Virus record (IMG/VR): IMGVR_UViG_2681813273_000001
Origin: a virus
Taxonomy: Duplodnaviria > Heunggongvirae > Uroviricota > Caudoviricetes
Direction: 5' to 3' (one strand)
DNA length: 8,048 bases
Shown here: in pieces, positions 1 through 8,048 of the stretch
How positions within the stretch are numbered: the stretch's first letter is position 1
Layout: every line of letters begins with the position of its first letter
Notes under the pieces: generated by a model
Database searches by the model: none
The model's input: only the letters and a program-made list of their open reading frames with translations
What the model was told of the DNA's origin: nothing
Made by a program: the position numbers and the translations under genes

Positions 1-63
1 CCTCAAAAACACCATCATACACTAAATCAGTAAGTTGGCAGCATCACCTCATTCGTCTGTTCC

Positions 64-1797: not shown

Positions 1798-2580
1798 TTA
1801 TGCTGCCCTTTTCATTGCGAATGGAACGCGAACAAACACGATCTCTTTATAGCAGCGGCAGTTTGGCAGCTCGCCCGCGTGGCCGGTCATGCCGTCCAAA
1901 GTTGGAGGTGAATCCCAGCGGACGAATTTACCTTTCATGTGATCGTGGGAATCTCGGACATCGCCATCATCGGCTGTACGCCAAATATAACCATCCGAGC
2001 CAATAGCTATCGCTCGGGCCATATCCAGCGCGCCCGTTGCTCTTCCCAGTTCCGTTCGGGCAATCAGATCGGCCCTAGACTTAGCAACATCGCCGGTAGA
2101 TGCAATCTCTTTAGCAAACTGCTCCGCCCGACCACCGGTGACAACAGCCTCTATCGCTTTGTTCTGGATGTCGTACACCCTGTCTGCGGCCTCGAGAGGC
2201 AGAGATTTGATGTACTTGACCTGTTCGGCGATGATGGATTGCATCACCTGGCCCACAGGAGCGCTTTCCACAAGATTGCGGAGCTCGCGACTGATGTTCT
2301 TGCTGTGTTGCCGCCAAACTTTCTCGTTCTGCCGGGTTAGGTCCGCAGTAAAGTTTTCCGCGACCTTTGTCGCCCAGGGGGTGATGATTTCACTGTAACG
2401 CTCCAGCGCCGCAATAATTTCCGTGATACTGTCATTTGAACCATCGTAGCGACCATTTACGATGTCTCCGACCGCCCTCGCTATCCTGCGTAGGCTGGTT
2501 CGATACCGGATTTCCGCCTGACGGCTCCTGCGGTTCGTCATCAGGTTCGCCGATGCCGGGCGGCGCTTCATCTTCGGCAT
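1798..2580 (-). CDS. Phage head morphogenesis protein, SPP1 gp7 / Mu F-like minor head protein (260 aa)
   Basis: Seen: ORF with ATG at 2580..2578 preceded by GAGGA about 8 nt upstream; TAA at 1800..1798. The motif region (ARTELGRA ... NCRC) and the position directly after the portal gene match the Mu F / SPP1 gp7 family (established family knowledge, recalled not searched). The start is uncertain: ATG also at 2571 and 2541, and no ATG/GTG/TTG exists in this frame between 2541 and 2435, so the gene overlaps the portal 3' end by at least 110 nt. Confidence 0.75.
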   Translation of the reverse strand: MPKMKRRPASANLMTNRRSRQAEIRYRTSLRRIARAVGDIVNGRYDGSNDSITEIIAALERYSEIITPWATKVAENFTADLTRQNEKVWRQHSKNISRELRNLVESAPVGQVMQSIIAEQVKYIKSLPLEAADRVYDIQNKAIEAVVTGGRAEQFAKEIASTGDVAKSRADLIARTELGRATGALDMARAIAIGSDGYIWRTADDGDVRDSHDHMKGKFVRWDSPPTLDGMTGHAGELPNCRCYKEIVFVRVPFAMKRAA

Positions 2581-3514
2581 TCTCGATGTCCTCGTCGGTA
2601 ATGGATGCCCCGATGCCGGTTACGTCAGAATTTTCTCGCAAATCAGTCATAGCGGCTTTCAGTGTCATCAGACCATCACCCAGCGCCGTACTGATTGCGT
2701 TGGTGGTGTTTAACGCCACCGTTGAGCGATCGACATCAGACATTTGCCAGAGCGGGTTAAACTCAAACGTGAAATCGTCCGGCAGCGGCTTGCCAAGTTC
2801 CGAACGATGCATGATGTCCAGTATCCGCCGCACCGGAAGACGTAAACGCCTCTCCTGCAACGAACTGATGCGATCGTAATAGTTGGCAAGGTCTGCATCA
2901 CCGGTAGAAAATCCTTTCGGGGACTGTCCGAACAACCGCACCAGTGGGATACCAACAGCGCCACTAATCTGTTCTACAAACTGCGAAAGGATGTCATCCA
3001 GACCACTGAAGCTGTACTGATGGGTTTCAAACTTATCCCGCGAGTCCATGAGCGTCATGCCTTCATTACTCTGGAACTGTCGAATCAGGTCGATATTCTT
3101 CAGCAACGCTTCATACGCAGGACCACCAAGTGCGATAAGCTCGCGTAGCTTCTCCACGCTGTAGGTACGCAAATGCGCCTTGTAGACCAGCTGCGCCGCG
3201 CCGACAGTAGCGCTGTCGAACGCGGTAAGACGATCCCAGATACGCTCTACAACCGACATTCCCCATTCGTTCTCGGTCATCTTCTGCTGAAATGGCAACG
3301 TGACGCCATCAAAGCGAATCAGGCGACTGTGATGAATGCGCCAGGCAGGAATTCCCGTTGCTGTGGTCACCACATCGTAAAACTCAGGTTTACCCAGGTC
3401 CGGCCCCATATCTTTAATGCGGCGGGTCAGTGCCGGGTCGACCATCCAGCGGTCGAGCGGGAGAATCCCCTTAAACTTGCCCTTACCGATGGTTTCGGGT
3501 CGCAGCGGGGTCAT
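2432..3514 (-). CDS. Phage portal protein (SPP1 gp6-like), longest uninterrupted segment of the portal reading frame (360 codons)
   Basis: Seen: ORF from ATG 3514..3512 to TGA 2434..2432, with an acidic C-terminal tail (DEDIENAEDEAPPGIGEPDDEPQEP...) typical of portal proteins. Position immediately downstream of the large terminase. The same frame continues upstream to an ATG at 3898 but crosses two TAG codons (see next feature). Confidence 0.75.
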   Translation of the reverse strand: MTPLRPETIGKGKFKGILPLDRWMVDPALTRRIKDMGPDLGKPEFYDVVTTATGIPAWRIHHSRLIRFDGVTLPFQQKMTENEWGMSVVERIWDRLTAFDSATVGAAQLVYKAHLRTYSVEKLRELIALGGPAYEALLKNIDLIRQFQSNEGMTLMDSRDKFETHQYSFSGLDDILSQFVEQISGAVGIPLVRLFGQSPKGFSTGDADLANYYDRISSLQERRLRLPVRRILDIMHRSELGKPLPDDFTFEFNPLWQMSDVDRSTVALNTTNAISTALGDGLMTLKAAMTDLRENSDVTGIGASITDEDIENAEDEAPPGIGEPDDEPQEPSGGNPVSNQPTQDSEGGRRHRKWSLRWFK

Positions 3515-3898
3515 TGGTGCCTACCCCTCAATCATGATGAAACCCACCGCGCCGCCGTAGAGGCGCGACCATTTCAGCACGTCATTCAGCGCATCCCAGA
3601 TTTGCAACTCATCCAGTTGTGATTCGAGAATGCCACGATCTTTTGCATCAATTTCCGAAGTGATGCGAATGCCTTTGCGGGTCATATCATCCGGGATAGC
3701 ATCGACTGCTTCGCCGATGATCTAGGATGAACGATAGGACCATTCCACCAGCATGCGGTTACGACTGGTGAAATTAGCCCGGTAGGTGGATGCTGAGTGC
3801 TGGTTAGGTGTCTGCATCCCTACGCGGGCAATAAAATTCTCATAACCATCAGCTGTGGCCTGCACAGTTCGCCGCAGGGCTTGTTTGTTTCGTGCCAT
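3515..3898 (-). pseudogene. N-terminal part of the portal reading frame, separated from the rest by two in-frame TAG (amber) codons at 3724..3722 and 3523..3521
   Basis: Seen by hand translation: ATG at 3898..3896 overlaps the large-terminase TGA (ATGA); frame reads MARNKQ...EWSYRSS-TAG-IIGEAVDAIPDDMTRKG...GFIMIEG-TAG-APMTPLRPE... and is the same frame as the 2432..3514 ORF, with no frameshift. Full frame 3898..2432 is 489 codons, which fits portal proteins of this type (~500 aa). Inference: either a genuinely disrupted portal gene, amber mutations, or base-call errors. Confidence 0.65.
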
Positions 3899-5307
3899 CA
3901 GGCCTGTCTCCCCAGCTGTTCCCAGATATCCAGCGATGTATCGATTGGCGCGAAGGCCATAATGAATGCATCAGCAACGTTTGGTGACGGTATCTCGCGT
4001 TTTGCGAGGTCTTTTTTACTTTCGACCATCACACGTCCGTTACGGTCGAAATCACGATGAGGTGTTGTCAGTTCCAGTTTCAGCTTTTCAAGCAACGGAC
4101 AACGAGAATCTATGCTGATCAGCTCATCCACAGGATACTGTTCTCCGTTGTTAATGGCGTTAAACGTATTTCTGAAACGGTCAGCCACCAGCCACCATGC
4201 CTGAGCCTTAAGATTTGCGAAAAAGTCTTTGTTGGGGATGCCGTTGTACTCGTCATCTGGCTCATGCACACCAGCACCGGCGTTAAACCTCTGGTAATTC
4301 ACACGTCGCGCGTATGCGTTCTCGCTCTTCNTCTTCCGGTCAGCGTTAATTTCAGAGAATTTAGCACCGGCAGACGCACCAACACCGATAGAGTCGTAAA
4401 CAATATCTGCTTCACGCTCCAGCGCCGCCTGATAAGTACGCTGGCAGCTCTTCAGTAATTCATCTTCTTTGGCCTTCCATTCGTCGGCCCAGAAAACAAC
4501 GGATCCGTGACGGTAAACGTTAGCGCACTTATCTGTACCACTGTCAGCCACGTCAAAGCCAATACGCTTTCTTCCACTGGGTTCGAAATTTAACGTTTTG
4601 TGCGCATCCACTGCGGCTTCTATCCAAGACAGTTTGATGATTGCCGCATCATCATCAGACTCCGGAACGCCCTCATACACATGTTTAAAACCATCCGGAT
4701 CACGGCGTCGCGCCGCGTCGATAACCTTAAGCATGGTGTCAGACAGAAACGGATTTTCGTCATAGTTAATTTTGCGGATGAGAGTGCCTTCGGGCGGATC
4801 AACAACGAAGTTGCGCCAGACGAAATCAGTAACAAGTCCGGGGTTGAATATGAACCAGCATTCCGAACCCTCTTTACGGATCGTTGGCTCCAGAATTTTC
4901 CACTGGTATTCCGTCAGTGCGTGGGCTTCTTCCAGCCACAACACATCGATCCCCTCCAGTGACTTAATTTCTTCGATGTTGCGCCATAATCCATAAAAAA
5001 CAAATTCCGAGCCAGTAACCCGGTTAATGATTTTGTTGTTCAGAATACGGAAACGGTGCCGCAGACCAAACCTGTCTATCTGAATTTTGAGCAGGGTATA
5101 CACCGACTCTTCGATTTTATTCTGGATCTGACGGGCACAACAAAAACGCAGGGTGTATTTATTCGACAGAAATATGGCAATGCCAGCGGCATCCCATGAT
5201 TTTGACGATGACCGACCACCATAAAGCACTTTGTTACGTGCCCGCATAGTCCAGAAACTACGTAAAGCCGGATTCAGCGTCGGTTTGGATGTCAGAGTAG
5301 AAGTCAT
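3898..5307 (-). CDS. Terminase large subunit (PBSX/SPP1-type, Terminase_3-like ATPase-nuclease)
   Basis: Seen: long ORF ending TGA 3900..3898. Walker-A-like VLYGGRSSSKSWD near the N-terminus, Walker-B-like IDVLWLEEAH, and a C-terminal acidic nuclease-like region (GFDVADSG, DAFIMAF). Start chosen at ATG 5307..5305 (MTSTLTSKP...) with GGAGAG about 10 nt upstream; alternative ATGs at 5334, 5331, 5325 and 5247 cannot be excluded. Contains an ambiguous base (n at 4321). Confidence 0.85.
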   Translation of the reverse strand: MTSTLTSKPTLNPALRSFWTMRARNKVLYGGRSSSKSWDAAGIAIFLSNKYTLRFCCARQIQNKIEESVYTLLKIQIDRFGLRHRFRILNNKIINRVTGSEFVFYGLWRNIEEIKSLEGIDVLWLEEAHALTEYQWKILEPTIRKEGSECWFIFNPGLVTDFVWRNFVVDPPEGTLIRKINYDENPFLSDTMLKVIDAARRRDPDGFKHVYEGVPESDDDAAIIKLSWIEAAVDAHKTLNFEPSGRKRIGFDVADSGTDKCANVYRHGSVVFWADEWKAKEDELLKSCQRTYQAALEREADIVYDSIGVGASAGAKFSEINADRKXKSENAYARRVNYQRFNAGAGVHEPDDEYNGIPNKDFFANLKAQAWWLVADRFRNTFNAINNGEQYPVDELISIDSRCPLLEKLKLELTTPHRDFDRNGRVMVESKKDLAKREIPSPNVADAFIMAFAPIDTSLDIWEQLGRQA

Positions 5308-6022
5308 TGAGGTCACGCTCTCCATTGCCATCATCAATACCTGCATCACGGCGAAGACGATCAGCCTCCAGAGACACCTTATCAGTGGCGGCCTTGCGGT
5401 AGGCTGTATCAGCAAATATTTTTCCTACCGTCGCAAGCGTGCCAACGATGGACTCAATACGAACTGTATTGCGCATCATTGCTTTCTCGGCGGCGCTGAT
5501 ATTTTCAATCAGCATCTTCCTTTCCTGGTCCCCATTAGCATCTTCCAGCGACACCAACCACCGACCAATATTCTCTGCAGCGACAAGGTTGTTAGCACGA
5601 AGGCGAAATAATTCGTCCTCGAGCGTCAACGCTTTAGCGTCCTCTATCACCTCATCTTTGAGCAGAAGGCGACGGGCATAACCACCGTGTTTTAATGCCT
5701 GCTGGTTACCGGGTTGGAATGGGTTAGTCGGGGGATCGGTACGCATTCCGCGTATCGGTTTCGTATCCGGTGTAGATTCTGTTTTTAGTTGCGTACTTTT
5801 TTGTGTAAGGCCAGTAATGGCAGGCTTTCTGCTGGTACGCACTTTCCTTTTTTGCGTACCATTTTTGCAAACCTGCGTACCGCCACTGCGTGCCCAACCA
5901 AGCTTTTTGGCCCTCTTCCTGATAGCCCCTTCTGTAACGCCGTATTTCTCGCCTATATCACGGAGGCTAAGGACTCCGGCCCGGTATGCCGATTCGATGG
6001 CCTCCCAGTCCGGTTTTGCCAT
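5258..6022 (-). CDS. Terminase small subunit with N-terminal helix-turn-helix (254 aa)
   Basis: Seen: ATG at 6022..6020 with AGGAAG 6-7 nt upstream; TAG at 5260..5258. N-terminus MAKPDWEAIESAYRAGVLSLRDIGEKYGVTEGAIRKRAKKLGW matches the HTH-type N-terminal pattern common to small terminase subunits (recalled). Located immediately upstream of, and overlapping, the large terminase gene. Confidence 0.75.
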   Translation of the reverse strand: MAKPDWEAIESAYRAGVLSLRDIGEKYGVTEGAIRKRAKKLGWARSGGTQVCKNGTQKRKVRTSRKPAITGLTQKSTQLKTESTPDTKPIRGMRTDPPTNPFQPGNQQALKHGGYARRLLLKDEVIEDAKALTLEDELFRLRANNLVAAENIGRWLVSLEDANGDQERKMLIENISAAEKAMMRNTVRIESIVGTLATVGKIFADTAYRKAATDKVSLEADRLRRDAGIDDGNGERDLNDFYSDIQTDAESGFT

Positions 6023-6219
6023 GATTATGCTTCCTGTGATTTACTGTTATCGCTGCCTGTCACAATAGGTTGCTTTAATTCTTCCTCATCACTCACTCCT
6101 GCGACGCTCCGTGGCAGGGCCCCCCACAGGAGTACCTTGTAAATGTAAGGTGTTTAAGCCTAAATTAAGTCGTATCACGGTTAAATAGCAAAGAAAAATT
6201 CACAGAAGGAAAGACATTG

Positions 6220-6729
6220 ATGGAGTGGATAAATGCTTTGATGAACTATTTTGTACTTCATCCATATCGCCTATGGGGGCTTCTTTTTATAATAGCGTTC
6301 ACAAAATCCACTTTACTCATTTCGGCGATATTGCCACCAGCATCAATTATGATGGCCACTGTAATTACAGTCAGCAAGACGACTCTTTCACCATGGGAAG
6401 CTGGAATCACGGTCATGAGTGGCGCATGGTGCGGTACTATCGTTAATTACCATCTTGGTATAATAATTGGGCATATCCCTCAACTTGCATGTATAATATC
6501 AAGCCGTTCCAATACAATAGAACGGGTTCGCCTTCAGTTGCAAAATAACTCTGTGTCAATACTTTTCACTTCGCGCTTTATCGCCGTGCTGCGTTATATT
6601 GCTCCTTTGGTGGCAGGAATGTTGCAACTTCATCCAGTGAAAGTGTATACAGTGAGTCTGATTTCAGCTGCTAGCTGGTCAGCACTTTATGTTGGTAGTT
6701 TTAGCTTCGTGTTGCCTTTTTTTAGCTAA
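6220..6729 (+). CDS. DedA-family (SNARE-associated/TVP38-like) small inner-membrane protein; prophage moron (169 aa from ATG 6220)
   Basis: Seen: ATG at 6220 (the ORF track starts at an in-frame TTG at 6217), GAAGGA RBS about 10 nt upstream, TAA at 6727..6729. About four hydrophobic segments. Motifs GTIVNYHLGIIIG and SRFIAVLRYIAPLVAGM closely resemble the E. coli DedA signature motifs (G.AVNY..GR and RF.P..R...P.VAGM), recalled from memory. Visibly AT-richer than flanking phage genes and on the opposite strand to the late operon. Confidence 0.6.
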   Translation: MEWINALMNYFVLHPYRLWGLLFIIAFTKSTLLISAILPPASIMMATVITVSKTTLSPWEAGITVMSGAWCGTIVNYHLGIIIGHIPQLACIISSRSNTIERVRLQLQNNSVSILFTSRFIAVLRYIAPLVAGMLQLHPVKVYTVSLISAASWSALYVGSFSFVLPFFS

Positions 6730-6817: not shown

Positions 6818-7288
6818 CTACCCCCCAAGGCATTGGATCCTGATGTACTCCTGAAGCATTCTCAATGCTGTCTGGTCGCTGATGATTCCGTCCCGGATAC
6901 CGAGAACGTTTCGTCCAGCAACTGGAGAGAGTTCGACGGTGGCATCATTGCCCATGCCGGAGGCGCTGGAGGTTTCGGCTGAGGATGGCACAGGGCATTT
7001 TCCTTTGACGAGCACCCGACCACCATTATCAAGCTTGCGCCGAAGAGCATCATTTTCAGCTTTCGCATCAGCTAACTCCTTCGTGTATTTAGCATCGAGT
7101 GCATCAGCATCACGCTGGCGCTGCTGCATGTCAGTAATGGTTGCGTTCGCCAGCTTCAGTTCTCTTGCGTTTTTGTCGCGCTGCTCTTTGTAGGTAATGG
7201 CGTTATCACGGTAATGATTAACAGCCCATGACAGGCGGACGATGATGCAGATAACCAGAGCGGAGATAATCGCGGTGACTCTGCTCAT
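6818..7288 (-). CDS. Rz: Rz-type i-spanin (inner-membrane spanin subunit)
   Basis: Seen: ATG at 7288..7286 overlaps the endolysin TGA (ATGA); the ORF track starts at an in-frame GTG at 7300. N-terminal TM segment ([20 protein letters not shown]) followed by a charged, coiled-coil-like periplasmic domain; TAG at 6820..6818. Position and architecture match lambdoid Rz. Confidence 0.85.
6862..7068 (-). CDS. Rz1: Rz1-type o-spanin (outer-membrane lipoprotein), embedded in the +1 frame of Rz
   Basis: Seen: ATG at 7068..7066, TGA at 6864..6862, lying entirely inside Rz in another frame. Product [19 protein letters not shown]|SS... has a lipoprotein signal peptide with lipobox VVGC, followed by a Pro-rich mature region ([11 protein letters not shown]), the hallmark of Rz1. 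Confidence 0.8.
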
Positions 7289-7782
7289 TGCTGCCCCCAC
7301 AAACAGACTTCACGCTCAATCTCACGACGGGTCATCAGCCCTTTCCATTGCTTACCGCCAGCATATGTCCAGCGACGTAGCTGGTCACATGCGCCTTTGA
7401 TATCGCCCTGGTTTATTTTGCGAAGAAGCGTCGATGTTCTGAAATTGCCAGCGCCCACGTTGTAAACGAACGAGTAAAGAGCGCCGCGCGTTGTTTCCGG
7501 TATATCGACTTTGATGTACGGGTTAATTTGTCTGGCGACAGTGGCAAGGTCTTTATTCAGGAGGGCTTTGCATTCTGCTTCGGTATACGTTTTACCGAGC
7601 ATGATGTCTTTTCCGGTGTGTCCGTGACATACAGTCCATACACCAATGATATCTTTGTATGGTATGTAGCTGACACCTTCCAGACCATCGTTACCACCTG
7701 GGCCAGTGATTAACACAGATGCTATAGCAACAGCCCCGCCACCAATAGCAACTGCAACAGCCTTGCGTAATGATGGCGACAT
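7285..7782 (-). CDS. R: SAR endolysin (T4-lysozyme-type muramidase with signal-anchor-release N-terminus), phage 21 R-like
   Basis: Seen: ATG at 7782..7780 overlaps the holin TAA by one base (TAATG); TGA at 7287..7285. N-terminal Gly/Ala-rich weakly hydrophobic segment ([20 protein letters not shown]) typical of SAR domains; catalytic triad spacing E-x8-D-x5-T present ([17 protein letters not shown]). Near-identical by recollection to the phage 21 R endolysin / DLP12 rrrD family. Confidence 0.9.
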
Positions 7783-8048
7783 TATTCACCTCTCGCAGCC
7801 TTACGCTTGTCTTCTCTTATTTTGAAATACAGATTNNNNNNNNNNNNNNNNNNNNNNNNNNNNNNNNNNNNNNNNNNNNNNNNNNNNNNNNNNNNNGTCA
7901 GATAAGTCAGAAGCCCCAGAAGCAGACTTCCCAGCACACCAATCGCAGCCCACTGTGATGGACTGACCTGATCCAACCACTGCAAAAACCAGTAGCCGGC
8001 ACTGCCGGCGGAGGTGCCGTAGGCAATGCCTGTTGATATTTTTTCCAT
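7782..8048 (-). CDS. S: Class II holin (pinholin), phage 21 S-like; reading frame spans a 61-nt N-run; a possible upstream alternative start would lie beyond the window edge
   Basis: Seen: ATG at 8048..8046 (last bases of the window), TAA at 7784..7782. Translation [50 protein letters not shown]-(N-run)[17 protein letters not shown] matches the S21 pinholin as I recall it ([68 protein letters not shown]). S21 is known to have dual translational starts a few codons apart, so the longer form may start off-window. Confidence 0.85.
7836..7896. other. Run of 61 ambiguous bases (assembly gap or masked segment) inside the holin gene
   Basis: Seen directly: n at every position 7836..7896. The flanks are in frame with each other across the run (2 + 61 = 63 nt = 21 codons). 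Confidence 0.95.

Follow-up and report, generated by a model that had tools for sequence, protein, structure and literature searches.

Shigella genomes are rich in pseudogenes. Hawkey et al. (2020) counted no fewer than 199 pseudogenes in each Shigella reference genome; half of those of S. sonnei were attributable to insertion sequences (IS), and some genes combined an IS with other lesions (PMC7373316). A 2026 resource paper gave approximately 660-710 PGAP pseudogenes and approximately 480-500 IS copies per S. sonnei genome, the lineages sampled being separated by only hundreds of SNVs (PMC12795559). Among the prophages described in this species, 75/02pp10 of S. sonnei 75/02 received the PHAST label 'Intact', with SEN34 as the suggested homologue (PMC5447701, Table 3).

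SEN34 is a Salmonella phage with an annotated full-length portal gene. In SEN34-like elements (the prophage of E. coli FDAARGOS_944, phage vB_EcoM-606R2 and SEN34 itself), the portal gene has 488 codons and directly follows the gene for the large terminase subunit (TerL). The window, by which we mean the whole stretch of 8,048 nucleotides analysed here (IMG/VR virus record IMGVR_UViG_2681813273_000001), likewise encodes a portal after TerL. The DNA of this portal gene is 85% identical to that of the SEN34 gene, and the frame is interrupted by two amber (TAG) codons. The explanation we favour, and hold to be very probable, is that two independent spontaneous amber mutations accumulated in the portal gene of a dead SEN34-like prophage of S. 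sonnei by neutral or near-neutral decay.

The portal reading frame and its two amber codons

The portal pseudogene (2432..3898, minus strand) was delineated by translation, profile match and comparison with homologues. Reading and translating the minus strand confirmed the frame described in the first-pass annotation: it runs from ATG 3898 to TGA 2434..2432 (translation 3898..2432), comprises 488 sense positions plus the terminal TGA, and contains exactly two internal stops, a TAG at 3724..3722 (codon 59, after ...EWSYRSS) and a TAG at 3523..3521 (codon 126, after ...GFIMIEG). Both are in phase with ATG 3898 (offsets of 174 and 375, multiples of 3). Listing of the open reading frames showed that the ambers leave three pieces of 58 aa (3722..3898), 54 aa (3521..3685) and 360 aa (2432..3514). 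Since approximately 23 stops are expected in a random frame of 489 codons, against two here, and since each of the two lies at a sense codon in near-identical homologues, the frame is a real gene with two point lesions, not a chance ORF.

The gene is preceded by a PBSX-type large terminase gene (3898..5307, minus strand), annotated as PF04466 (Terminase_3) with a product of 467 aa in complete genomes, and followed by genes for a Mu-F-like head morphogenesis protein, a DUF2213 protein and a cement protein. The TerL stop (TGA, 3900..3898) and the portal start (ATG, 3898..3896) form the motif TGATG and share a single base; the four-base ATGA overlap proposed earlier was incorrect. At its 3' end (2432..2541), approximately 110-150 nt of the portal gene are also covered, in another frame, by the Mu-F-like ORF (1798..2580), which encodes 247 aa in the E. 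coli relatives and is called as either 247 aa or 152 aa across S. sonnei assemblies.

Profile searches assigned the gene to the portal family PF06381 (Phage_portal_3, DUF1073). With the curated cut-off at 33.8 bits, the intact homologue reached 355.4. Of the pieces in the window, the 360-aa one scored 274.5 bits and matched positions 84-355 of the 357-position profile, and the 54-aa one scored 40 bits and matched positions 24-76. Relatives in the PDB were portal proteins, including the Pam3 portal (8hds, E=2e-37), in whose alignment W59 lies opposite a tryptophan and Q126 opposite a glutamine. With its full-length frame broken by two in-frame TAGs, the gene in the window is a pseudogene of the PF06381 family and not a functional member.

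The 360-aa downstream ORF (2432..3514, minus strand), recognised by ORF listing and profile search, opens at ATG 3514, 6 nt after the second amber, with a GAGGGG motif 9 nt upstream of the ATG. This start context raises the question of whether a restart product was domesticated, for example as a dominant-negative portal fragment acting against related superinfecting phages; the 360-aa frame is also intact and identical across assemblies. Such identity is however uninformative on constraint, the sampled S. sonnei lineages being only hundreds of SNVs apart. The fragment furthermore lacks the first 83 or so of the 357 profile positions, and IS insertions precede the late operon. We therefore regard a domesticated fragment as extremely unlikely. 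The first-pass annotation had also pointed out that its interpretation would fall if homologous portals began at the position equivalent to 3514; the intact homologues are instead proteins of 488 aa.

We also considered a phage that recodes TAG. In agreement with the earlier proposal that TAG is an ordinary stop here, this codon ends both Rz (6818..7300) and a 254-aa small-terminase-like gene (5258..6022). Internal TAGs occur in one gene only, the ancestral residues at the two positions differ (W and Q), and the window encodes no tRNA; recoding was rejected.

Ancestral codons and occurrence in Shigella sonnei

By megablast, 382 of 5426 complete E. coli genomes and 7 phage records contain the portal gene. 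The best three matches, each with 99.8% DNA identity, were prophages of E. coli FDAARGOS_944, FDAARGOS_943 and VL40, and all three loci are annotated with an intact 488-aa DUF1073 protein (WP_000113499.1). Only 3 of 1467 bases distinguish the window portal from these genes, and all three changes are G:C>A:T transitions. Comparison with the intact homologues showed that the first amber (3722..3724, minus strand) replaces TGG (W59) through a G>A change at 3723, and the second (3521..3523, minus strand) replaces CAG (Q126) through a C>T change at 3523. The third, also specific to S. sonnei and identified by base-by-base comparison, is a C>T change at 2976 (minus strand) that turns GCA into GTA (A308V). 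The portal of phage vB_EcoM-606R2 (URC08706.1; 98.0% DNA identity) has TGG and CAG where the window has TAG, and its deposited phage relatives also encode intact 488-aa portals with TGG and CAG. The check suggested in the first-pass annotation, to look up the sense residues in intact homologues, thus returned tryptophan at codon 59 and glutamine at codon 126, and each stop is one transition removed from a conserved sense codon.

Both TAGs (codons 59 and 126) were read cleanly in 9 of the 10 complete S. sonnei chromosomes fetched. In the tenth (L014), which is noisy with indels, the second TAG was seen and the 58-aa and 360-aa fragments were called. In an index of public assemblies, 2576 blocks contain the exact 360-aa product and 2737 contain its 58-aa counterpart, again as an exact match. 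Wherever the locus was read, the two pieces lay side by side, and look-ups of the two fragments revealed no genome with one amber alone among the places read. Most blocks holding the fragments have a longest contig of 5-10 kb, which fits a unique segment of approximately 7.8 kb between IS copies that break short-read assemblies. The lesions are common to S. sonnei 53G (HE616528.1) and S. sonnei 75/02 (CP019689), which belong to lineage II and lineage IIIc, respectively, according to PMC5447701; no locus read was recognised as coming from lineage I or V.

These data bear directly on the proposal, made in the first-pass annotation, that the stops are sequencing or assembly errors of a draft containing Ns. 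The window does contain draft artefacts, namely 61 Ns, a GAAGAN insertion and six odd bases in the lysozyme gene, but these lie elsewhere in the window. Since both TAGs are present in nine clean, independently assembled complete chromosomes, and the fragments in about 2,600-2,700 blocks, the stops are real mutations and not sequencing errors. The probability that we leave to the error reading is vanishingly small.

The GAAGAN insertion is a 6-base in-frame insertion in TerL (4331..4336, minus strand) that duplicates the following GAAGAG; it occurs in none of the 10 complete S. sonnei chromosomes and in none of the three E. coli relatives, and is probably a draft-assembly artefact. In the lysozyme gene rrrD (7377..7661), six positions set the window apart from all 10 complete S. 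sonnei genomes. Three of them (7661, 7404 and 7377) retain the E. coli-like state, and the other three (7598, 7597 and 7564) show states found in none of the genomes compared. The window may come from another S. sonnei lineage, gene conversion may have acted on the gene, or paralogous lambdoid lysis cassettes may have been collapsed into one consensus.

Other lesions of the prophage

The window covers the lysis, packaging and head genes that remain of a SEN34-like myovirus prophage adjoining pgl in the S. sonnei chromosome. Its first 48 bases (1..48, minus strand) are the terminal 48 bases of IS1 and abut base 4 (ATGA) of a DUF2184 gene at the major-capsid position. When the S. sonnei 53G locus was aligned to that of E. 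coli FDAARGOS_944, whose sister prophage has the same pgl junction, IS1 (L008 13467..14234) was found to stand in place of 19,075 bp (L015 87..19161). The lost block encodes the major capsid protein, head-tail connectors, a DUF3383 protein, which we take to be the tail sheath, the tape measure protein, baseplate, spike and tail fibres, as well as ipaHb. No capsid-to-tail remnants were detected within 10 kb of IS1 in three complete S. sonnei genomes; beyond IS1, the complete genomes continue with what is left of a truncated DNA-invertase gene and then with pgl and ybhD. The neighbouring head genes for TerL, the Mu-F-like protein, the DUF2213 protein and the cement protein are still intact in the remnant, a point against the decay reading.

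A second insertion lies among the lysis genes. The run of 61 Ns (7836..7896) is a scaffold gap for an IS3-family, IS2-type element located in a class II holin gene. In complete S. sonnei genomes, the element that splits the holin gene is approximately 1.34 kb long and contains ORFs of 121 aa and 301 aa. Window positions 8048..7897 correspond to L005 4197..4348, one of the complete S. sonnei loci, and homology picks up again at L005 ~5686-5717.

Set against the orthologous sister prophage, the S. sonnei element is a decayed one, with IS1 in place of 19,075 bp, a holin gene split by an IS, and a portal gene with two ambers. The option of a defective prophage carrying nonsense mutations, one of three offered in the first-pass annotation, proved correct. 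IS1 has displaced both the major capsid gene and the complete tail module, and the IS2-type element has broken the holin gene. Since both regions are affected in this way, with the capsid and tail genes absent from the locus, the prophage cannot form particles, whatever happens at the ambers. The ambers are one set of lesions among several, and nothing marks them as the inactivating event.

The same observations are hard to reconcile with an amber (sus) conditional-lethal phage propagated on a suppressor host, in which read-through of TAG would give a full-length portal. In favour of this proposal, both stops are amber, and their ancestral codons, TGG and CAG, are classic sources of amber mutations. 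The locus does not amount to a complete phage genome, however, and lacks the major capsid, neck, tail and fibre genes; TAG terminates neighbouring genes; and the allele is found in thousands of assemblies of the clinical pathogen S. sonnei, not in one laboratory stock. A scan of the window and of three S. sonnei loci (L005, L008 and L011), reaching 10 kb to either side, yielded no suppressor tRNA, and the only tRNA gene in the sequences scanned was a tRNA-Met in L008. We consider a viable amber mutant next to impossible. The first-pass interpretation as a whole was partly supported.

The published prophage 75/02pp10 is the same locus: the region that we read in S. sonnei 75/02 (CP019689.1 3470417-3491499, L013) lies inside its reported span (3461614-3492646) and shares with the window both the double-amber portal and the IS1 junction. 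On this reading of the locus, the 'Intact' label of 75/02pp10 is contradicted by the lesions found.

Several observations concern the surroundings of the remnant. A gene for a DedA/VTT-domain membrane protein (6217..6729, plus strand) separates the lysis module from the packaging module and is read from the opposite strand, in a moron-like placement; it is intact in S. sonnei, and its single change is synonymous. In S. sonnei, a further IS1 stands in place of ybhH, ybhI and the beginning of ybhJ. Along the chromosomal flank (invertase remnant, pgl, ybhD, ybhJ and ybhC; L008 14235..16839 and 17599..21083), S. sonnei 53G and E. coli FDAARGOS_944 share only 98.0-98.5% identity, whereas the prophage packaging and head genes are approximately 99.9% identical, with 7 differences in about 6.5 kb. 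This contrast suggests that the prophage segment was shared or exchanged more recently than the divergence of the backbones.

Substitutions, selection and comparison with known systems

Substitutions from the DedA gene to the cement gene (about 6.5 kb) were polarised with the three E. coli relatives. Seven are fixed in S. sonnei, and six of these are G:C>A:T, the commonest class of spontaneous mutation in E. coli. Three of the seven are synonymous (DedA S95S, terS-like G153G and TerL I94I) and four are non-synonymous or nonsense (DUF2213 S403N and portal A308V, W59* and Q126*). Chemical mutagenesis or a DNA-damage artefact as the source of these transitions was rejected in view of the thousands of assemblies with the allele and the commonness of G:C>A:T changes.

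Changes of the G:C>A:T type that create a stop make up 5.0% of those possible across these genes and 6.2% of those possible in the portal gene. The probability of two or more nonsense changes among seven is 0.045, and 0.15 over 14 changes when the lysis genes are included. The portal gene represents 19% of the coding sequence, and placement of both stops in the same gene adds a factor of approximately 0.2. Two nonsense changes among seven, both in one gene, are therefore mildly unusual and above the neutral expectation. This excess carries little weight, as the feature was chosen for looking odd and the host has several hundred pseudogenes.

The mild excess is nonetheless what could be cited for positive selection of the portal nonsense mutations, according to which a knock-out of packaging and virion formation helped the host while the lysis and cargo genes (DedA and, formerly, ipaHb) were kept. 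The portal gene also accounts for three of the four non-synonymous lineage-specific changes between the DedA and cement genes, and for no synonymous one. Several points argue against selection. After one nonsense mutation has inactivated the gene, selection cannot favour another; the IS in the holin gene and the deletion of the capsid and tail genes make a selective target unnecessary; the statistics are weak (n=7) and apply to a feature picked for its oddness; and different genes are broken in sister lineages.

The sister prophages themselves illustrate this last point. In that of FDAARGOS_943 (L002), IS2 interrupts TerL and the Mu-F-like gene contains an internal stop; in that of FDAARGOS_944 (L015), a head-tail gene is frameshifted and the tail-fibre genes are truncated. 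Independent and different lesions of this kind are the pattern expected of parallel neutral decay. We consider positive selection on the portal mutations very unlikely. The broader possibility, that a portal knock-out was selected in the S. sonnei ancestor or that a re-initiated 360-aa fragment serves as a decoy against superinfecting SEN34-like phages, is in our view similarly doubtful, and its probability very low.

Neutral or near-neutral decay remains the reading that we prefer. According to this model, W59 (TGG) and Q126 (CAG) would have become ambers through two independent spontaneous G:C>A:T transitions. Both mutations presumably arose on the branch leading to S. sonnei, and they are common to the lineages sampled. 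As the prophage has no particle-forming ability in any case, the stops would carry no function and would reflect the neutral or near-neutral decay of a gene no longer under selection. The mutations, the codons from which they derive, their presence in many independent assemblies and the other lesions are all shown; it is the spontaneous origin and the neutrality of the ambers that we infer here.

The significance of the locus is small: it adds one more fixed pseudogene to a pathogen in which gene loss and the spread of IS elements are already well known. It does illustrate the limits of labels such as the PHAST 'Intact' call, given here to a prophage with a double-nonsense portal, a split holin gene and no capsid or tail genes. 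The sister prophage carries the type III secretion system effector gene ipaHb, so that the S. sonnei remnant also records the loss of one chromosomal ipaH copy via the IS1 deletion.

Among systems that are generally known, the classical sus mutants (for example lambda Sam7 or P22 amber stocks) likewise have a morphogenesis gene that is essential and in which TGG or CAG has become amber. Unlike these, the element in the window is no viable conditional mutant: the virion module is deleted at the locus, and no suppressor context was found. The double-amber portal is instead a case of ordinary gene decay of an already known kind, a fixed pseudogene in an IS-rich cryptic Shigella prophage. As in the Shigella pseudogenes and IS-associated deletions described by Hawkey et al., nonsense inactivation, IS insertion, IS1/IS2-driven deletion and fixation in the sampled lineages are all represented, and there is no difference of substance; the window provides one instance of that decay, in a prophage gene.
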